In this document: positions 14,183-36,126 of the stretch, one piece after another
How positions within the stretch are numbered: the stretch's first letter is position 1
Layout: each line of letters opens with the position of its first letter
Source: Planctomycetota bacterium
GTDB lineage: Bacteria > Planctomycetota > B15-G4 > SIAN01
Direction of reading: 5' to 3'
Assembly (NCBI GenBank): GCA_009691715.1
Contig: SIAN01000016.1
Span: forward strand, 389 to 64,388
Length of the DNA: 64,000 bases
Notes under the pieces: model-generated
Told to the model about the DNA's origin: nothing
Databases searched by the model: none
What the model saw: the letters and a program-made list of their open reading frames with translations, nothing else
Position numbers and translations under genes: made by a program

Positions 14183-15346
14183 ATGCGAATGCCCGGTTTG
14201 ATGCTCTCGGTGGCCGTGTTGGTCGCGGTGTCGCTCATTTCCGCAGGTTGCGACGAGCCCTCGCCGCGGTCGGCGACGCCGGCTTCAGTGGCGACGCCCG
14301 CATCTGCTGCGCCGACGGCCGTGGGCGATCCGGCAGCCGCGCGCGCTTCGCTGCCAGCTGCCCTGGTACCCGCCGGCGCCGAGCAAGGCGCCGGCGCGCC
14401 GGCGAAGCCCTGCTTCGAAGTGTCCCCGCCGGGTTTCGAGCTGAACGTCGTCGAGCAGAACTCGGTGCACGACCTCGAATTCTCCGTCATCAACTGCGGC
14501 GACCGGCCGTTCAACGTCGCCTACGTCACGACCGAGTGCAAATGCATGACGCTCGATGTCGACCGCGCGATGTTGAAGCGCGGCAACTCGGTGAAGGTCA
14601 AGCTGCGCGTCACGGCGACCGCCTCGAATGAGCGCAAGACGGCGGCGATCCTCCACCTCTCCGACCCGGCGAAGTCGAAGGTCCGAGTCGAAGTGCACTA
14701 CGCCGTCGTGCCTGAAATCCTGGTCGAGCCTCGCGGTGTCGGCTTCGGTCGGGTCGAGAGCGGCAAGACAGCCGAAGTCTCCTTGCGGGTGACGATGCAC
14801 CTGCCGGGGTCGATCAAGGAAATCCCGAAACTCGAGCCATTCATCGCCCATGACCTGCCGATCAAACTGAGATTCGACGAGCCGAGCATCACGACGTCGG
14901 CAGGCGGGATGCGCGACTGGGTGGCGACGCTCCATGTCGAGCTGGACGGGAAGGAGCCGATCGAGCAGTTCCTGACCCAGTTGGTGTTCAGGCCGACGGA
15001 GAATCTCACGTTCCGCGAACTCGCGGTGCGGGTGACCGGCGAAGTGGTGCCGGCTTGGTATTTCGAGCGCGGCGTCGTCGCGTTCGGCTCGGTCAGCGCC
15101 GGCGAGGCGGTCGAGAAGGAGATGCGTTTCTACTACCCCGGCCCCGAAGTACCCGCGGTGCTGTCCCTCGAGACTGACGTCGCCGGACTCGAGGTCACGA
15201 GCGCGCCGGACGCTGAGCAGCGCTGCCACGTGCTCAAGCTCAAGCTCGTCGCCAAGGAGTCGGGGAAGATCGAGGGGGTCGTGAAGCTGACCACCTCGCT
15301 CAGTTCGGAACCAGCGGTGCTGCGGATCACTGCACGCGCGAAGTGA
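14183..15346 (+). CDS. DUF1573-like (Ig-fold) lipoprotein, paralog 2
   Basis: Lipobox LISAGC. FSVINCGDRPFNVAYVTTECKCM. Alignable with 13032..14174. Confidence 0.8.
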   Translation: MRMPGLMLSVAVLVAVSLISAGCDEPSPRSATPASVATPASAAPTAVGDPAAARASLPAALVPAGAEQGAGAPAKPCFEVSPPGFELNVVEQNSVHDLEFSVINCGDRPFNVAYVTTECKCMTLDVDRAMLKRGNSVKVKLRVTATASNERKTAAILHLSDPAKSKVRVEVHYAVVPEILVEPRGVGFGRVESGKTAEVSLRVTMHLPGSIKEIPKLEPFIAHDLPIKLRFDEPSITTSAGGMRDWVATLHVELDGKEPIEQFLTQLVFRPTENLTFRELAVRVTGEVVPAWYFERGVVAFGSVSAGEAVEKEMRFYYPGPEVPAVLSLETDVAGLEVTSAPDAEQRCHVLKLKLVAKESGKIEGVVKLTTSLSSEPAVLRITARAK

Positions 15347-15926
15347 CCGGCGCAGTCTTGTTCGACGATCGACTCGACGATCGACTCGACGAACGATTCG
15401 ACGAGCTGCGGCAGGCATCTGCGGAATCGGAACAGACATCGGGACCTGAGCCGAATCGCTCAAGCGCGTCGAGTGGGCCGAGCGGGGCCGAGCCGGGCTC
15501 GACCGCCATGCGTTCGACGGGTGCTTGCATGGCGATTTCCTCGACGCCCGCGCGCGCAAGGTGCAGTCGAGCGATCGTCGACGCCTTTTGTGCTTCGATC
15601 TCCTGACGCAAGTCAGCGAGACGCGCTCGTCCTGACTCGACGGCCGCGAGCTCTGCGCGCACCGCGTCGACGGCGGATCGGCCCGCAAGCGTGCGCAGCG
15701 TCTCGACCGATTGATCGACGGCCCTCAGTGCCCGGTCGAGTTCGCGCTCGCGTTTCTCGAGTCGATCGTGCTCGCGCTCGAGGCTGCGGGTCCGGCTGAT
15801 GCGTTCGCCGTTCTCCGGAATCGCGTTGTGCGTCAGCGCGATCGGACAGCCGAGGCGACTGCGTACGCGTCCGACGAGGGCGAACGTCCCGACGAGGCCA
15901 AGGAAGAGCACCGTGCTGGCGCGCAT
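15327..15926 (-). CDS. N-terminally membrane-anchored coiled-coil protein with Ser/Arg-rich tail
   Basis: GGAG lies 8 nt before ATG 15926. TM MRASTVLFLGLVGTFALVG, then heptad-like Glu/Arg/Leu-rich region. High GC3. The 3' end overlaps the convergent gene by 20 nt. Confidence 0.7.
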   Translation of the reverse strand: MRASTVLFLGLVGTFALVGRVRSRLGCPIALTHNAIPENGERISRTRSLEREHDRLEKRERELDRALRAVDQSVETLRTLAGRSAVDAVRAELAAVESGRARLADLRQEIEAQKASTIARLHLARAGVEEIAMQAPVERMAVEPGSAPLGPLDALERFGSGPDVCSDSADACRSSSNRSSSRSSSRSSNKTAPVTSRVQ

Positions 15927-16004: not shown

Positions 16005-16865
16005 TCAGTCGCGGCCGACGATGACGACCTGGGGCGGCGGTTCGACCGCCGGACCGAGCAGTCTCGACAGCCGCTCCCGCACGTCGTTCGCTGCGGGCTC
16101 CGGAGAGTCGTAGTCGATGCCGGCCGGCTTGCCGCCTGCCGCGAGGCGCAGCCGTTCGTCGAGCAACCGACCCTTCACCTCGAGCTTGCCTTCGAACTTC
16201 GCGCAGAGTTGGCGGACCTCGCCGATCGCGGTCTGGAACTCCGCGACGTCGAAGTCGCCCGCGACAGCCTCGGCATAGATCTCCCGTGCTCGCTGCTTCT
16301 CCAGCTTCGCCGCGAGAAGGCGCAGCTTCCCGGTCAGCTCGCCGCGCAACGCTTCGCCGCGGACGACGTTCTCCTTCGCCAGCGCGAGGGCGCCGCGACG
16401 GACTTCGAGCGTCTGCCCCAGCTGCGCGAGCGTGTCCTGCTGCACGCCCCAGAGATCGAGCTTCTCGGCGACGTCGCGCTCGATCTGGGCGCGGGCATAC
16501 GAGCTGCCGCCGATCACGAAGCGTTCGCCGGCGGTGGCTAGGAGCGACTGCGCCTTCTCGAGGTTCTTCTTCAGCCGTTCGATCGCCTGCTGGCGGTCGC
16601 CTGACTCCTTCTCGAGGCGCTGGACCTCGACCTCTTCCGAGATTGAATGTTCGCGCAGTTCGCGGATTTCGGATTCGAGCGACTGCACGCGTGACTCGAT
16701 GCCATGCAGCTCGCCGCGCATGCCCTGGATCTCGTCGATCTTCGCGACGATCTCCTTCTTGCCCTGGTCGAACCAGGCGCACACCTGGTCCTTGCCGTAG
16801 AGGCAGCCGAGCGCGCCGACGCCGAGGCTGCCGAACACCAACGACTTGCCGAGAAACTTCAACAC
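16005..16865 (-). CDS. N-terminally membrane-anchored long coiled-coil protein (PspA/IM30-like character, unverified)
   Basis: GGAGG lies 8 nt before GTG 16865. TM LKFLGKSLVFGSLGVGALGCLYG, then about 230 aa of helical, charged repeats. Confidence 0.8.
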   Translation of the reverse strand: MLKFLGKSLVFGSLGVGALGCLYGKDQVCAWFDQGKKEIVAKIDEIQGMRGELHGIESRVQSLESEIRELREHSISEEVEVQRLEKESGDRQQAIERLKKNLEKAQSLLATAGERFVIGGSSYARAQIERDVAEKLDLWGVQQDTLAQLGQTLEVRRGALALAKENVVRGEALRGELTGKLRLLAAKLEKQRAREIYAEAVAGDFDVAEFQTAIGEVRQLCAKFEGKLEVKGRLLDERLRLAAGGKPAGIDYDSPEPAANDVRERLSRLLGPAVEPPPQVVIVGRD

Positions 16866-16893: not shown

Positions 16894-17265
16894 TCAACAG
16901 GTCTTCGATTCGGTCGTGGCCGGGTGGAGCGCCTGCGCGTGCGCGGTGCGCCAAGCGTCGGCGATCCCCCAGACCCACGGCACGATCAGCCAGCAAGTGA
17001 GGAGGACTGCGACGCCGCGCAGAGGCTGGCCGTTCAGCGCCTGTCCGGCGCCTGGCACCAGCGTTCCGGCTGCGGCGCGCAGCCACGGCGTCAGACGCGA
17101 GGCGGTCGCACGCGTGCCGTCGGCGCGCACGAGTTCGGCGCCGCAGTGCGGGCAGCCGATTGCGCGCGCGGCGAGGTCGGGCAGCCGCGCGCCGCAGCCG
17201 CGGCAGAACGGCATGAAGGCCGGCGCTTCCGCGAATCGAACCCATGCGAGTGGGGCGGCGAACAT
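16894..17265 (-). CDS. Zinc-ribbon membrane protein with PGxGQ..G...RG two-TM module
   Basis: ATG 17265 with GAGAAGGA upstream. CRGCG...CPHCG ribbon, then LVPGAGQALNGQPLRGVAVLL...GIADAW. Track extension to 17493 rejected (overlaps the upstream gene). Confidence 0.8.
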   Translation of the reverse strand: MFAAPLAWVRFAEAPAFMPFCRGCGARLPDLAARAIGCPHCGAELVRADGTRATASRLTPWLRAAAGTLVPGAGQALNGQPLRGVAVLLTCWLIVPWVWGIADAWRTAHAQALHPATTESKTC

Positions 17266-17291: not shown

Positions 17292-17891
17292 TCAGCGGCG
17301 CGTCTCGTGGGCGAGGAGGAGGCTCGCGGCGATGCCGCCGAGTGGGACCAGCAGTTCGCGCGGAGCGGCTGCGAAGCCGCCATGCGTCGTGAGCGTGATC
17401 GCGATGACGCCGAGGCCGATGAGCAGGAAGAGCACGTCGTCGGCTCGTGCGCCACCGGTGCTGACCGCGACGCCCTTGCCGGTCTCCGCGCAACGGAACG
17501 CGTCAAAGAGGCCGAAGACGTATAGGTAGGCGCCGAGCAACGGCGTCATGAACGGTGCGTCGCGCAACATCAGCGCTGCACCGAAGAGGCCGGCACCGCG
17601 CATCACGCGACCGGTGTAGGCCTGACCGAGGCCGGGCACGATCGAGAGCGCGGCGGCGAGCCACCTGCTGCGCGCGTGCGCGCGTGGCGCGACGCCATCG
17701 ACCGGCACCGCAACCGCTGCGCCCGCCGCCGTGACGAACACTGCCGGTTCGGGGTGGAGCGTCGACCTGCAGCTCACGCAGAAGTTGCGAACGCCGTCGA
17801 GCGCGCGGCAGCTCGGGCAGAGATGCAGGCCGCAGCGAACGCAGCGCGCGATCGCTTCCACCGCCGGATGGGTCGCGCAAACGAAGGTCAC
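17292..17891 (-). CDS. B-box-like zinc-finger membrane protein with PGxGQ..G...RG two-TM module plus extra TM segments
   Basis: GGAGG lies 7 nt before GTG 17891. CATHP..CVRCG..CPSC....CVSC, then SIVPGLGQAYTGRVMRGAGLF...GLFDAF. Confidence 0.8.
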   Translation of the reverse strand: MTFVCATHPAVEAIARCVRCGLHLCPSCRALDGVRNFCVSCRSTLHPEPAVFVTAAGAAVAVPVDGVAPRAHARSRWLAAALSIVPGLGQAYTGRVMRGAGLFGAALMLRDAPFMTPLLGAYLYVFGLFDAFRCAETGKGVAVSTGGARADDVLFLLIGLGVIAITLTTHGGFAAAPRELLVPLGGIAASLLLAHETRR

Positions 17892-17953
17892 GGCGAGTCC
17901 TCCCGCCGAGCTTCGTGATCGGTTTCACGAATTCTCCGGCGGCGGCCTCCTAA

Positions 17954-17968
17954 TCAACGCGCGTGCCA
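17954..17968 (-). promoter_or_regulatory. Near-consensus sigma54 (-24/-12) promoter for the 17891..15327 operon
   Basis: Minus strand reads TGGCACGCGCGTTGA versus consensus TGGCACG-N4-TTGC (one mismatch, A for C). Lies in the 207-nt gap after the kinase gene, about 60 nt upstream of GTG 17891. Confidence 0.6.
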
Positions 17969-18098
17969 CCTCGCAGATCCCGCAAGCGCCGCGTCATCGC
18001 TGGCGCAACCGACTGAGAAGAAAGCAGTTGCGGCACCGACTTCGTCTGCCGTCGCTGCCGCCCGCGAGCGCTCTCCGCGGCCGCTTTCCGTACGGTCG

Positions 18099-20102
18099 TC
18101 AGCTTTCCTGACGGCGGATCGAAGGCGGTGGTGGTGCCAGTCGGGCGGTGGCGGCTTCGTGCAGCCCGAACTCGTCGCGACGTCGCCGCGCGGTCTTGTG
18201 CGCCAACACTGTCGCCACGACCCACGCGGCCAGCGCCAGTTGCGATTCGTCGCTGGCGAACAGGGTCAGCGTGCCAGCCAGGAACGCGATGCCGAGCATC
18301 GGGCGTCCGGCGTAGATCAGCCCTGCGCCCGGCACGATCGACCAGCGCAGTGCACGACCAGGGTTCGGCGGGACGCCGATGCCGGGAGGCGCTGAGAGGA
18401 ATGGACGTGGACGCTGCGCCGTGAAGCAGAGCGCGCCGACCAGACCGTCGTGCAGCGGACGCCGAAACGCCGACATCCGGCCGAGCAGTTCGAGCACCAG
18501 GAGCCACGCGATGCCGACGCCACTGAAGGATTGGAACGACGGCGTCGCAGTGAGCCAGCCCGATTCGGAGGCGACGTGGGCGACGCAGTGCGACAGTGCT
18601 GGTGCGAGCAACAGCACGCCGGGAGCTACCAGGAGCGTGCGCGTCGCGGCGCGTAGGACGCCGAGATCGCTACCGTCGCGCCGGCAGAGTCGCAGGCGGA
18701 GCCACTGCCGCCCGATGGTCCGGCCGCCACGCACGTCCGCGGCGACGTAGTAGAGGAGCGCCGCCCCGACGGTCGCGAGGGCGAGCGCCATCGCCTGGGT
18801 TGGGGCACCGACCGGCAATTCGGGTGCCATCAGGCGCGCCGCCAACGACCCGGCCAGGGTCGGCGCGCCAACGAGGACACTGCCGGCCACAAGCAGCAGG
18901 TGCGACAGGAATTCGATCGCGAGAAGGTCGATGAGGAAAGCGAACCCGCGCCGCCACACGCCCGCCGGCTCGAGCACGAACTCGGTCGTCGCTTCGTGCG
19001 GCAGCATGTAGGTCGTTCCGCCGTGCTGCACGCGGCGCAACGGCGGATCAGCGCCGCCGATCGGGTCATTCCCGGCGGCGACCCGCTCCAAGTCCTCGAT
19101 CAGCGCCGCGTGGGTCTGGTAGCGCTGCTCCGGTTCCTTCTGCAGCAGCCGATGCACGATGCGCTCGAGACCGGGCGCGACTGCGGCATTGCGCGTCCGC
19201 AGCGGGAGCGGATCTTCGCGAAGGTGCTTCATGATCACCGCGACGGGCGACTCCGCTTCGTGGGGAGGAGCGCCGCCGAGCACGTGATAGAGGGTCGCGC
19301 CGAACGCGTAGAGGTCGGCACGATGGTCGACGCGGTCGCCGCGTCCCTGCTCCGGCGCCATGTAGTGAGGCGTGCCGAGGATCTCGCCGGTCACGGTCAC
19401 GCGTGACTGCGAGTCGACGGCCTTCGCGAGACCGAAATCGGCGACCTTCACGGTTCCGGCTGCCGTCAGCAACACGTTGCCCGGCTTGATGTCACGATGG
19501 GTGATGCCGAGTTCTGCGGCGGCGAGGAGGCCGCGGACCGCCTGGAGAGCAATCGGCACGATGTTGTCGGGACGCAGCACGCCCCGCTGAGCAGCGGCGA
19601 GCAGGTCCTCGCCTTCGACCAGCTCCATGGCGATCCAAGGCGTCGTGCCGTCGACGCCCGCATCGATGACTTTCACGATGTTCGGATGGTGCAGGGCCGC
19701 GGCGGCGCGCGCCTCGCGTTGGAATCGCGAAATGAAGTCAGGGCGTGATTGCAATCCCGGATGCAGCAGCTTGAGCGCGACCTCGCCGCCACTGCGGGTA
19801 TCGAGTGCGCGCCAAACGCTGCCCATCCCGCCTTGGCCGAGCATGCTGCGGAGCTCGAACGGACCGACCCGATGCGTCTCACGCGGGCCGAGCACCGCAG
19901 TTGCAATACTGCCGGTGGAGCGCGGCGGGGACGCAACGGGCGCTGCGGCGGGCCCTGAGGCGGGCGCGGGCGGTGCGCCGGCGCCGACGTGGGGCACGAC
20001 GCTCCGTTCGCAGCAGGTCGGGCAGGTCACGTCGCGAGTTGCGGCGTCGACCGTCAGCAGCCGGCCGCAGCGGCAGAAGAAGCGCGTCTGTCCCGTCGTC
20101 AC
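18099..20102 (-). CDS. Zn-ribbon / Ser-Thr protein kinase / RDD-domain membrane protein
   Basis: GTG 20102 overlaps the activator TGA (GTGA). [54 protein letters not shown]-type TM region. C-terminal [16 protein letters not shown]. Track start 20528 rejected. Confidence 0.9.
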
Positions 20103-21973
20103 GCGTCCGGCTCGAGACCGAACGCCTTGATCTTCTCGTAGAGCGTGATGCGGGCGACGCCGAGGATTTCCGCTGCCCGGGTCTTGTTCCAACCGGTCGC
20201 CGCCAGCACGGCACGGACGTGCTCCTTCTCCATCACTTCGAGCGAGACGAGCCGGCGCTCGACCCAGGGCGACGCTCGGTCTCCGGATGCGGCGGCGAGT
20301 CCGAGGTCCCCCTCCTCGATCTGCGGCCCTGCTGCGAGCAGCAGCGCGCGCTCGAGGGCGTTTCGCAATTCGCGCACGTTGCCAGGCCATGCGTGGCGGC
20401 GGAGTCGATCGAGCGCGCCGGGCGCCAGCGGCAGAACCGCGCGGCCCGATCCGCGCGCAAGCTCGAGAAGGAGCCAGGGCGCCAGCTCTTCGAGATCGGC
20501 GAGCCGTTCGCGCAGCGGCGGCGCGCACACTTCGACGACCTTCAGTCGGAACAGGAGGTCGGTCCGGAACGCGTCCTTGCGGCAGAGCGCGTCAAGATCG
20601 CGGTGCGTCGCGGCGACGAAGCGGACGTCGACGCGAACCTCTTCGCTCCCGCCGACACGGAAAAAGCGCTTCTCTTCGAGCAGCCGCAGCAGCATCACCT
20701 GGACGTCCGTCGGAAGTTCGCCGATCTCATCGAGGAAGAGCGTGCCGCCATGCGCCAGCTCGACCAGCCCGATTCGGCGCTGGGTCGCGCCCGTGAACGC
20801 GCCCTTTTCGTGTCCGAACAGTTCGCTGCTCACCACATTCGAGGGAAGCGCGCCGCAGTTCACTGCCACGAACGGTGCGCTGCCGCGGGCGCTCTGCTCG
20901 TGGATTCCGCGCGCCACCAGCTCCTTGCCCGTTCCGCTCTCTCCGGTGATGAGCACGGTTGCGTCGACGGTCGCTGCCTTGGTCACCATCGCGCGCAGCC
21001 GCTGCATCGACTCCGAACCGCCGATCAGCTGGCGTTGCGGCGCGGACTCTCGCAGATGCTCGTTCTCGCGTGCGAGACTCTCCTTCTCCCTGCGCGCGTC
21101 GGCGGCGAGGCCGACCTGGTGCGCTGCGGCGGAGAGGAACGAGATCTCGTCGAGGCCGATCGGGGCGGCGAGGCTTCTTGCTGCGACGTAGAGCACGCCG
21201 ACACGGCCGCGCAACGGGATCGGCGCGCACGCGATGCGGACGCTTCGCGCTGCGACGATGCTCTTGGCACCCTTGAGCTCGGGTTCCGACTGCACGTCGT
21301 TCGCGAGGACCGCCTGGCCGTTCGCGAGCACGCGGCGCACGACGGTCATGCTCCACGGCGGCGGCGTCCCGGACTTCGCGTGCGACGCCACGGCGGCGAG
21401 TACGAATGGGGCGCCTTTCGCCGGCCGCGGTCCGATCAGCACATGACCGTCATCGAACGGCAACGTGTCGAGCAACGTCTTGAGCGCGCCATGGAGGACG
21501 GCGCCAACGTCGGTCGAATCGCCAACCACGCGCAGGATGCCGTAGAGCGCCCGCAGATGGCGCGCGCTCGATTCCGGGGACAGGCTCGCCGGCGGGTACG
21601 CGGAGTTCGCCGCGTCGATCGCGAGTTCGATCTCCTCCGGTCCGATCGCGCAGGTCTTGTACGCCTCGGGCGCCGCCTCGTGTGCCTCGACCCGCAGCAC
21701 GAGGCGCCCGATCACGATCGTGTCGCCGTCCTTCAGCCGCGCGCCGTGGATCCGTGAGCCGTTGACGAAGGTGCCGTTGGTCGAGTGGAAGTCGGAAATC
21801 GCGAGGAGCTCGCCGTCGGGGCGCACTTCGCAATGCAGTCGCGACGCGCCCTCCTCGTCGAGGACGACTTCGCATTCAGGTGCTCGGCCCAGCCGCAGCG
21901 AACGGTCGACTTCGACCGCGCGACGTTCGCCTTGCGCGTCGGTCCAGACCAGATCGAGGCGCGCCGCTGCCAC
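20099..21973 (-). CDS. FHA-GAF-AAA+ sigma54-dependent transcriptional activator (Fis-type HTH)
   Basis: GGAGGG lies 5 nt before GTG 21973. FHA ([29 protein letters not shown]). GESGTGKE Walker A. GAFTGA sigma54-contact motif. C-terminal HTH ([21 protein letters not shown]). Confidence 0.92.
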
Positions 21974-33487: not shown

Positions 33488-33963
33488 CGCGGGCCGTGCG
33501 TGCGGAGCGCATCTGCATGGCGCGCTCGCGAGTGCGATGGCACGGACCGCTGCCGCCAACGCTGCGTTCGTCGAGCGTCCGGTCTGCGTCCGAAAGTCGT
33601 TACCAGTAAACAGGTTGCGGCTGGCGATTGGCAGTTTCGAAGCCGCTGCCGACGCAACTGGCGGTCGGCACACCCTTTGTTTCTTCGGGCGCGAACCCCG
33701 AGGCGGTCGGAGTCGGCCTCGCGAATGGATCGGTTCAGGCAAGCCCGGTTCCTTTGCGGCAACGGGGCTTGGTTCTCGCTGAGGGGTTCATTGAAACGAA
33801 TCGCTGACTGGCCGGGTCGCTCGCTCGGACGCCCGCGAGCGTCCCGCCGGGCGCTTTGCCTGCAACCACCGCTCAGCTTCGCGGCCCCGTCGCGCGCTTC
33901 GAGCCAATGAACGGTCGCGCTCGCCTCAGGGGTACGCGCGCTCATCCCCCGTAGGAGCACCCC

Positions 33964-36126
33964 ATGCGCATCGTCTCGATCCCGTTCGCGGTCTGGCTCG
34001 CCGCATTTCCGCTTTCCGACATCCTCGTCGCCCAGCAATCGCTGGCGGAACGCTTGCCCGCCGACACCTTGCTCTACCTTTCGCTCGACACGGGACGGCT
34101 CGTCGATGGCGCGCTCGAGCTCGACCTCGCCAATTTGCTCGACGAGGCGCAGGTTCGCGAGTTCCTCGCTCCAGTCGCTGCGCAGGCCAAGGTCGAGGTT
34201 TCGACCGACGGCATCCGTCGGCTGATCAACTCGGTGCCGTGGCAGAGCTACGTGAACGGTCGCGTCGAGCTCGGACTCCGGGGCTTCGAGGTGTCGATCG
34301 GCGGGCAGCGACTCACGATCGCACCGAGCCAGCCGATCGACGCGCGCATGCTCAACCGTCTGAGCGCTCTCGCCGAGCAACTCGCGACGGAGGGCGGTGG
34401 CTCGGTGGTCATCGAGCCTGACGTTGTGCTGTCGATCGACGTCGGCGACCGTTTCGCAGCGTGGTATGGCGAGATGATCGACGGGCTTCCGCGACAGGGC
34501 GTGCCGGTCAAAGTCGAGCGCTGTGCCATCGGCGGCCGCGACGTGACTCGTCTGGCGTTCCAGCCGGACTCCGAAGGCCCGAAGATCGCGCTCCACATCG
34601 CGGCCGATCAAGGCCGTTGGTGGGTCGCCGGCAGTGCCGCCGCGCTCGAGCGGACGCTTGCCGGTGGGCAGGGGGCGTCGCTTGCTCGGGATGCCGCGTT
34701 CCGCCGTTGCGTCGACCAGGTCGCGATCGAGCCAGCGGCGCTGCTCGCCTACTTCAATGCCGCGCACGTCGCGCGCATCTTCGATCGACTGGTCCCCCCG
34801 ATCGTGAAGGAGGAACTCGACCTGCTCGGGCTGAGCTCGGTCGAGTCGGTCGGTTTCGCCTCGAGTTTCGTCGCCGGCGGCGTGCGTGACTCGATCGCGC
34901 TGTCTTGGTCGCAACCGCCGACCGGCCTGCTGTCGCTGCTGGACTGTGTCGACGGCGGCTTTGACTACTTGAATGTTGCCCCCGTCGAGACCGGCTTCTA
35001 TCTCGGGCTGCGAATCGCACCCGAGGCATTTGTCGACAAGTTGGCGCTGGTCGCCGACCAGTTTGCGCCCGGATCGTCACGCGGTCTCGACCAGGCATTC
35101 GCGCGAATCGAGGCCGAGTTGGGGGTCGATGTCCGCGAGGCGCTGCTCCCGGCGTTCGGCGACGAACTCGGGGTGTATCTCACTCCGCCAGGCGGCGGCG
35201 CGATGCTCCCCGACGGCATGGTGATGCTCGAAGTCGGCGATCGCGAGCAGTTCGCCAAGTTGTTCGCGATGGTCCGAGAGATGGCGGCCCAGCAGGGTGC
35301 GCCGTTCTCGGACGCGCGCGGTCTGCCGCCGGGTGTCGAGGGATTCACGCTCGCGCTTCCCGACGCGCCGATTCATCCGGCATTCGCCCTCACCAAGGAG
35401 GCGCTCTGCATCGCGCCCAACGTGCTTGCGCTCAAGAGTTCGTTGAAAGCGCTCGAGAATGGCCGGACCGAGTCCGCGTTGGGCAACCCACGCCTCCAGC
35501 AGGTCTTGACCGGCCTCACGGGCAAGCCGAGTGCAGCCGGCCTATCGCTCCTGGCGTTCGTCGATCTGCACCAACTCGTAGTGCTTGGCTACCCGTTCCT
35601 GCCAATGGTCGCCGAAACGTTGCATCGTGAGGTTGGCGTCGATCCGTCCGCGTTGCCCGAGGTCGATGCCGTCGCCCCTCATTTGTCCGGCATCGGCATC
35701 GCCGGCCGCTCCGATCGGCACGGCCTGGTGTTGTCGCTCTTCACGCCGACGGGGCTGTTGCCGTTGGCGGCGAGTGCCGCCATCTGGCAGCACTCGGCGC
35801 GTGAGTCGGCGCACACCATGGCGGCGATGGCGACGGCGACGCAAGCAATCTCGCCGACGCCCGCCGAGGTTGCTGCGAGCGAGCTGGGGCAGCGAGACCG
35901 CCCCGCCGGCAAGACTCGGTCGCTCGGCAGCCTGTTCGCGAGCCTGGAGAAGGCGACCGGCGCGACCATCGACTTCCCGGACTCGATCGCGGACGTGCAG
36001 GTGAGCTACCACGCGAAGTCCGGCGATCTGGACGTGATCCTGGCCGAACTCGCTGTTTTGGTGGGCTTCGGCTATTCGATCGACGCGAGTGACGGCGAGC
36101 GGCTCGTCACGATCACCCGCGGCTGA
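33964..36126 (+). CDS. Large secreted hypothetical protein
   Basis: AGGAG lies 5 nt before the ATG. Signal peptide MRIVSIPFAVWLAAFPLSDILVAQQ. 720 aa. High GC3. No family confidently recognised. Confidence 0.8.
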   Translation: MRIVSIPFAVWLAAFPLSDILVAQQSLAERLPADTLLYLSLDTGRLVDGALELDLANLLDEAQVREFLAPVAAQAKVEVSTDGIRRLINSVPWQSYVNGRVELGLRGFEVSIGGQRLTIAPSQPIDARMLNRLSALAEQLATEGGGSVVIEPDVVLSIDVGDRFAAWYGEMIDGLPRQGVPVKVERCAIGGRDVTRLAFQPDSEGPKIALHIAADQGRWWVAGSAAALERTLAGGQGASLARDAAFRRCVDQVAIEPAALLAYFNAAHVARIFDRLVPPIVKEELDLLGLSSVESVGFASSFVAGGVRDSIALSWSQPPTGLLSLLDCVDGGFDYLNVAPVETGFYLGLRIAPEAFVDKLALVADQFAPGSSRGLDQAFARIEAELGVDVREALLPAFGDELGVYLTPPGGGAMLPDGMVMLEVGDREQFAKLFAMVREMAAQQGAPFSDARGLPPGVEGFTLALPDAPIHPAFALTKEALCIAPNVLALKSSLKALENGRTESALGNPRLQQVLTGLTGKPSAAGLSLLAFVDLHQLVVLGYPFLPMVAETLHREVGVDPSALPEVDAVAPHLSGIGIAGRSDRHGLVLSLFTPTGLLPLAASAAIWQHSARESAHTMAAMATATQAISPTPAEVAASELGQRDRPAGKTRSLGSLFASLEKATGATIDFPDSIADVQVSYHAKSGDLDVILAELAVLVGFGYSIDASDGERLVTITRG

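Follow-up and report, generated by a model that had tools for sequence, protein, structure and literature searches.

At glnAp2, the GG-N10-G(C) core is preceded at over 100 bp by two tandem dyad sites from which NtrC acts, and contact with the promoter is made by DNA looping. In the pspA system of E. coli, the activator PspF lacks a sensor domain and is restrained by PspA. Enhancer-binding proteins carrying an FHA domain have reportedly been described in Myxococcus xanthus by Jelsbak, Givskov and Kaiser in 2005 (PMC549468, listed in PMC12288465), and in silico predictions of sigma-54 promoters and activators are said to have been made for Pirellula sp. strain 1 by Studholme and Dixon in 2004. 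To our knowledge, almost no promoters have been experimentally defined in the Planctomycetota.

The locus described here lies in a stretch of 64,000 nucleotides from a Planctomycetota bacterium (the whole of this stretch is called the window), for which an earlier note had proposed a near-consensus sigma-54 promoter immediately downstream of an activator/kinase gene pair. The minus strand at positions 17968 to 17954 of the 64-kb window reads TGGCACGCGCGTTGA, i.e. TGGCACG-CGCG-TTGA, exactly as had been reported, and this motif is contained in the longer minus-strand stretch GAGGTGGCACGCGCGTTGATTAGGAGG. The comparative evidence presented below makes it very probable that this 15-base motif is a real sigma-54 promoter. 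The features of the locus, in the order of the proposed circuit, are the following (promoter coordinates are relative to the predicted transcription start).

20099 to 21973, minus strand: activator gene, encoding an enhancer-binding protein of the type FHA-GAF-AAA+(GAFTGA)-HTH_8 according to Pfam
18099 to 20102, minus strand: kinase gene, encoding a membrane protein with Zn-ribbon, Hanks Ser/Thr kinase and RDD parts (Pkinase 2.7e-42, RDD 1.6e-10)
18097 to 18113, no strand assigned: candidate enhancer site UAS1, the perfect palindrome CGTCAG-GAAAG-CTGACG, overlapping the kinase stop codon, centre at about -163
18078 to 18094, no strand assigned: candidate enhancer site UAS2, the imperfect palindrome CGTACG-GAAAG-CGGCCG, 19 nt after UAS1, centre at about -144
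18004 to 18032, no strand assigned: middle inverted repeat, CGCAAC-N17-GTTGCG, centre at about -76
17954 to 17968, minus strand: probable sigma-54 core promoter, TGGCACG-CGCG-TTGA, with GG at -25/-24 (17967-17966) and GA at -13/-12 (17955-17954)
17940 to 17944, minus strand: predicted transcription start, +1 at about 17942, placed by the fixed sigma-54 geometry (GG at -25/-24, G at -13)
17899 to 17904, minus strand: Shine-Dalgarno sequence GGGAGG, 7 nt before GTG 17891
17292 to 17891, minus strand: gene 1, located directly behind the promoter, starting at GTG 17891 and encoding a 199-aa B-box/Zn-ribbon membrane protein
16894 to 17265, minus strand: gene 2, encoding a 123-aa Zn-ribbon membrane protein, its position kept across the order
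16005 to 16865, minus strand: gene 3, encoding a 286-aa coiled-coil protein with a hydrophobic N-terminus, the best-conserved downstream gene (35-78% identity)
15327 to 15926, minus strand: gene 4, encoding a 199-aa protein, found after gene 3 only within the window's own family

Among the described systems, pspA/PspF/IHF of E. coli resembles the locus in having a -24/-12 core with a base other than C at -12 (pspA, TGGCACGCAAATTGT, has TTGT at its -12 element; PMC2831329 Table 1). The predicted layout is also similar, with a local dedicated activator on tandem upstream sites and a further site between enhancer and promoter, and in both systems the targets are small membrane or coiled-coil proteins. 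Unlike PspF, the activator of this locus carries FHA and GAF sensor domains and has a partner Ser/Thr kinase, and unlike in the pspA system the middle repeat is a palindrome and not of the IHF type, and the lineage is that of the Planctomycetota. The fusion of an FHA domain to a sigma-54 AAA+ activator is shared with the M. xanthus proteins, and the presence of FHA on a sigma-54 activator implies that control runs through Ser/Thr phosphorylation and not through a histidine kinase. In contrast to M. xanthus, the kinase gene here adjoins the activator gene, the start codon of the former overlapping the stop codon of the latter, and the target promoter lies right beside them, so that the whole circuit can be read from one locus; an extra GAF domain and the different phylum are further points of difference. 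With NtrC at glnAp2, too, paired dyad sites precede a GG-N10-G(C) core by over 100 bp (looping being proposed for the present locus), whereas the receiver domain and the histidine kinase of that system are missing here and the half-site sequence is another one. Finally, the in silico work on planctomycetes (Pirellula sp. strain 1; PMC12316311) takes the same approach, a promoter match beside an activator gene, and is not known to include this locus, its enhancer or the -12 usage of Phycisphaerales.

The motif is intergenic, on the sense strand, and situated in a gap of 207 nt (17892-18098) between the stop codon TGA of the Ser/Thr kinase gene (18101-18099) and the GTG start codon (17891) of the gene for the B-box/Zn-ribbon membrane protein. 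The gap length given in the earlier note was thereby reproduced, and so were the distance of about 60 nt to GTG 17891, which is 62 nt from the motif end, and the GGAGG ribosome-binding sequence, which is part of the GGGAGG at 17904-17899; the orthologues all have an equivalent GGAG/GAGG before their start codon. The GG and G(C) elements are exactly 10 nt apart in a TGGCAC-N5-TTGC-like context, and the consensus C at -12 is absent, the base being an A (17954). With a start at about 17942, the 5' leader would be some 51 nt long. The sequence GTGAAAC at 17922-17928 (minus strand), which would fall at about +15 to +21 in this leader, is kept in four of the six aligned loci of the window's own family. 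The GTG at 17928 was considered as an alternative start or as the beginning of an upstream open reading frame and was rejected, since its spacing to the real start shifts by 1 nt among orthologues and there is thus no conserved reading frame.

The number of matches to the bare string is no argument for a promoter. Within the window, TGGCAC-N5-TTG[AC] was found twice with 0.19 matches expected, and in the whole genome (3.81 Mb, 68.7% GC) TGGCAC-N5-TTGC was found four times and TGGCAC-N5-TTGA once. There was no genome-wide enrichment of the consensus string, the counts being close to the prediction from base composition and similar to those of controls with a wrong spacer (4 or 6 nt), and the flagged string is no rarer than chance. 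The other of the two window matches, TGGCACCCGAATTGC at 18815-18829 (minus strand), is a perfect TTGC consensus within the RDD-coding portion of the kinase gene; it was present in no orthologue and is probably a chance match. Similarly, the top-scoring look-alike, GGCACGTGCGTTGA at C42:214213, upstream of a gene for a GGDEF response regulator, was absent from all 23 orthologous loci and represents a negative control. Counts at chance level, together with one perfect and one near-identical match that are both unconserved, are what would be seen if the flagged motif were also a chance match in GC-rich DNA. Given that the consensus string is not enriched genome-wide, the case for the promoter rests on phylogenetic footprinting, and the flagged site is significant because it is conserved and scores highly with an independent matrix.

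For the footprinting, 42 genomes of the order Phycisphaerales were searched (a search at class level gave the same 42) and the 300 nt upstream of the B-box gene were examined with the deliberately loose sigma-54 pattern GG[CT]A[CT]-N5-NTGN. The B-box gene was found in 26 of the 42 genomes: every member of the families f1, f2, f3 and f5 has it, the 16 genomes in f4 all lack it, and the gene order activator-kinase-B-box gene was distributed in the same way (every searched genome of the four families and none of the 16). On the sense strand the pattern occurred exactly once in 21/21 loci and then in all 26 genomes having the gene, with 44-84 nt between the GG and the orthologous start codon. On the reverse strand it was present in 1 of the first 21 loci, and dinucleotide-preserving shuffles matched on average in 0.74 of 21 loci and never in more than 4. 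The GG, the A and the TG at the correct spacing never vary, and the remainder of the intergenic sequence cannot be aligned between families. As the 26 orthologous loci are related, 26/26 does not represent 26 independent events; they fall into at least three or four deep lineages whose flanking sequences cannot be aligned. Absence of the site from orthologous loci had been named in the earlier note as an outcome that would speak against its reading, and the site was present in all 26. With the same place and strand in 26/26 genomes, as compared with 0.74 of 21 loci in the shuffles, the conservation data already refute a chance match, to which we assign practically no probability.

The 18 validated E. 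coli promoters listed in PMC2831329 Table 1 were used to construct a weight matrix with 12 informative positions, the base composition of this genome serving as background. The flagged site scored 16.5 bits with this matrix, which is within the range of the E. coli promoters themselves (10.3-20.1 bits), and it ranked fourth among all positions of the genome and second among the intergenic ones; such scoring had been suggested as a check on the motif, and its outcome was favourable. The -12 base at the orthologous sites in the 26 genomes was A in 11, C in 9 and T in 6 cases and never G. Besides pspA, the E. coli hydN promoter (TGGCATGATTTGTGA, with GTGA) also has no C at -12 (PMC2831329 Table 1). 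A C at -12 is not obligatory and the mismatch at this position does not disqualify the flagged site. In the order examined here, A or T at -12 is normal.

Several other sites of the sigma-54 type were observed in the genome. Outside the window, GGCACGCTGATTGT (G000 C19:119435, minus strand, locus L137) is located 73 nt upstream of a gene for a 143-aa exported protein and directly downstream of another enhancer-binding-protein gene, and its core GGCACG-N4-TTGT is kept in 7/7 family loci. Inside the window, GGCACACCCTTTGT at 33667-33680 (plus strand) is located about 283 nt upstream of a gene for a 720-aa exported protein (33964-36126), with GGCAC-N5-TTTGT kept in seven of the eight family-level orthologous loci, and on contig C56 a paralogue of this gene is preceded, at 80 nt, by GGCACTGCCTTTGC. 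The fourth case is a groEL paralogue with GGCACTCCGTTTGC 87 nt upstream (G000 C42:70369, minus strand, locus L185, outside the window), where a GGCA(C/T)-type -24 element and TTTGC (TTTGA in one locus) are kept in 16 orthologous loci from three families. This points to sigma-54 dependence of the groEL paralogue in Phycisphaerales, in agreement with the listing of chaperone genes among the predicted sigma-54 targets of Planctomycetota in PMC12316311. Since these sites are kept and the look-alike upstream of the GGDEF gene is not, conservation separates real sites from look-alikes. Among the four conserved promoter families studied, A/T is kept at -12 in three (B-box operon, 143-aa gene and 720-aa gene) and C in groEL only.

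A conserved element in this position could also be something other than a promoter, either the operator of an unrelated DNA-binding protein or an RNA signal in a read-through transcript from the kinase gene. Read-through is plausible, as the stretch from the kinase gene to gene 1 has no predicted terminator, and the transcription start is itself only predicted. Such functions are difficult to reconcile with the pattern of constraint, in which the invariant positions are the sigma-54 contacts (GG, A and TG at the fixed N10) and the spacer is variable, and with an element that is strand-specific, scores like validated promoters and has counterparts of the same kind in three other gene families of the lineage. 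An RNA signal finds no support from Rfam either: no family matched the gap region, where the only hit was a meaningless microRNA match (E 0.42). We consider a non-promoter function very improbable and return to the sigma-54 promoter as the preferred reading. Neither a sigma-70-like promoter nor a terminator was predicted in the gap. Because the kinase gene is not followed by a predicted terminator, the operon could in addition be expressed by read-through, on which the sigma-54 promoter may superimpose inducible control.

The components needed to use such a promoter are encoded in the genome. There is a single rpoN gene (PF04552, 1.8e-59, at C16:147458-147931; ORF of 479 aa) and the protein is intact, with region I and the RpoN box ARRTVTKYR. 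The activator encoded upstream of the kinase matches Sigma54_activat (PF00158, 1.7e-67), FHA (1.8e-17), GAF_2 (1.3e-6) and HTH_8 (5.6e-13) and has the Walker A and B motifs and the GAFTGA loop of an AAA+ activator in intact form, which agrees with the initial description of a sigma-54 activator with an intact loop. The phosphothreonine-binding motifs of the FHA domain are present as GR, SxxH (SRLH) and NG, and the catalytic motifs VALK, HRD, DFG and APE are all present in the kinase, whose GTG start overlaps the activator stop codon as GTGA. In Pfam searches no receiver domain was found on the activator and no HisKA or HATPase_c on the kinase. The claim of an adjacent activator/kinase pair is correct as far as the two genes are concerned and does not hold if a two-component system was meant: with FHA and GAF on an activator that has no receiver and Pkinase and RDD on a Hanks Ser/Thr kinase, a pair of the NtrB/NtrC type was rejected. 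A homologue search with the activator protein was useless for orthology, the search patterns on GAFTGA leading to generic activators of many phyla.

The two palindromes UAS1 and UAS2 have the arrangement of an enhancer, i.e. paired dyad sites about 80-200 bp upstream of the core promoter, and the sequence CGTCAG-N5-CTGACG of UAS1 is unique in the genome. In the six loci of the window's own family, the palindrome block is almost invariant at the nucleotide level and the kinases are only 42-65% identical. In f2, GTTCG-N5-CGAAC occurs twice at the same place and in the same layout with another half-site, and in f5 TGTCGG/CCGACA arrangements, likewise in tandem, are located at the equivalent place. 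When half-sites were compared with the putative HTH_8 recognition helix, GTCAG was found with ARITLYEKI (f1), GTTCG with GRTN(I/L)YEKI (f2) and TGTCGG with SRPTLYDKI (f5), suggesting that the half-sites change in step with the helix of the adjacent activator, a correlation that extends over three or four lineages only. An inverted repeat conserved across relatives had been sought as a sign of activator binding, and the palindromes at 18078-18113, which are kept among the relatives and vary with the HTH helix, provide one. UAS1 shares sequence with the final five codons of the kinase gene and part of its conservation could therefore be protein-driven; counter to this, synonymous positions are also fixed and several of the f2 and f5 palindromes are wholly downstream of the stop codon. 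Helical phasing between enhancer and promoter was considered; the distances form clusters (123 vs 131-134 nt), with too few independent loci for phasing to be claimed.

In one Planctomycetota MAG (DAINBU010000194.1, L115:270-2480), an IS1-like element of about 2.2 kb (DDE_Tnp_IS1, E 6e-6) was found inside UAS1, flanked by the 9-bp target duplication GGAAAGCTG. The element cuts the promoter off from the kinase gene and one half of UAS1 and, as read from the sequence, is a natural disruption of the candidate enhancer.

The genome encodes 13 strong enhancer-binding proteins, that is twelve besides the adjacent activator, and the promoter could be real and yet be served by another of them, in which case the palindromes would be a different operator or reflect constraint on the 3' end of the kinase gene. 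The overlap of UAS1 with coding sequence is compatible with this, and binding of UAS1/UAS2 by the adjacent activator is a prediction. The gene order activator-kinase-operon, however, is kept across four families, the palindrome is found once in the genome and at a classical enhancer distance, and its half-site changes with the HTH helix of the adjacent activator. A role of another activator is thus regarded as unlikely, though less so than a non-promoter function, and the adjacent FHA-GAF protein as the better candidate.

Between the enhancer and the promoter, CGCAAG-N17-CTTGCG versions of the middle repeat are present in all six own-family loci and in part of f2. The distance from the repeat to the kinase stop codon is 66-68 nt in the six own-family loci and 56 or 67 nt in the f2 carriers, and the distance to the promoter GG is 56 or 65-67 nt, a step of about one helical turn. 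The length of the N17 spacer is kept and its sequence is not. An RNA hairpin is the less likely explanation, as the arms carry mismatches rather than compensating changes and the 17-nt 'loop' is fixed in length; mismatched arms and a fixed spacer favour a protein site over a hairpin. The consensus site of IHF is WATCAANNNNTTR, and an inspection by eye revealed no consistent match to it in the aligned loci, so the repeat was rejected as an IHF site. Two genes of the HU/IHF family are present in the genome. An architectural protein or a second regulator are candidates for binding the middle repeat, and, as a rather doubtful suggestion, a palindrome at this fixed distance may mark an architectural partner in the place of IHF.

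The earlier note had assigned four downstream membrane-protein genes to the promoter. For genes 1 to 3 this placement applies order-wide, and gene 4 is found there only within the family. None of the downstream genes matched PspA_IM30 at E <= 0.01, and genes 3 and 4 gave only generic coiled-coil matches.

Taken together, the single rpoN, the conservation in 26/26 genomes, the matrix score and the palindromes varying with the HTH helix support the sigma-54 promoter reading, and we think it likely that RpoN holoenzyme occupies 17968-17954 and is opened by the adjacent FHA-GAF activator bound at 18078-18113, with transcription starting near 17942. According to this model, RNA polymerase with the single RpoN of the genome would bind the motif as a closed complex that needs ATP-driven remodelling, for which the FHA-GAF-AAA+-HTH protein encoded two genes upstream is the best candidate. 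Dimers of the activator would bind the two tandem palindromes at about -163 and -144, over the kinase stop codon, and would reach the promoter by DNA looping, which the repeat at about -76 may aid. The activator would most likely be switched on by the co-translated membrane Ser/Thr kinase through recognition of phosphothreonine by the FHA domain. Transcription from about 17942 would then proceed through the B-box, Zn-ribbon and coiled-coil genes and, in the window's own family only, the fourth gene.

A promoter beside the gene for an enhancer-binding protein is what a specialist would expect, and the switch, although well defined, is of an ordinary type. The usage of the -12 base could have wider implications. 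Phycisphaerales sigma-54 may accept any of A, T and C after the TTG of the -12 element, the consensus C perhaps being unneeded; this is a tentative suggestion that we rate as rather doubtful, and if true, the -12 fork-junction lock would be set differently in the Phycisphaerales lineage. Alternatively, A/T as opposed to C at -12 could tune basal leak and activator dependence promoter by promoter. The locus comprises a complete predicted sigma-54 circuit within 7 kb in four families, consisting of a kinase, an FHA activator, a paired enhancer, a middle site, a core promoter and a three-gene target, and natural variants are available in the form of three half-site types, three -12 bases and one enhancer disrupted by an IS element. 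It would thus constitute a compact test bed for the gating of an AAA+ activator by Ser/Thr phosphorylation and for the weight of the -12 base outside the Proteobacteria.
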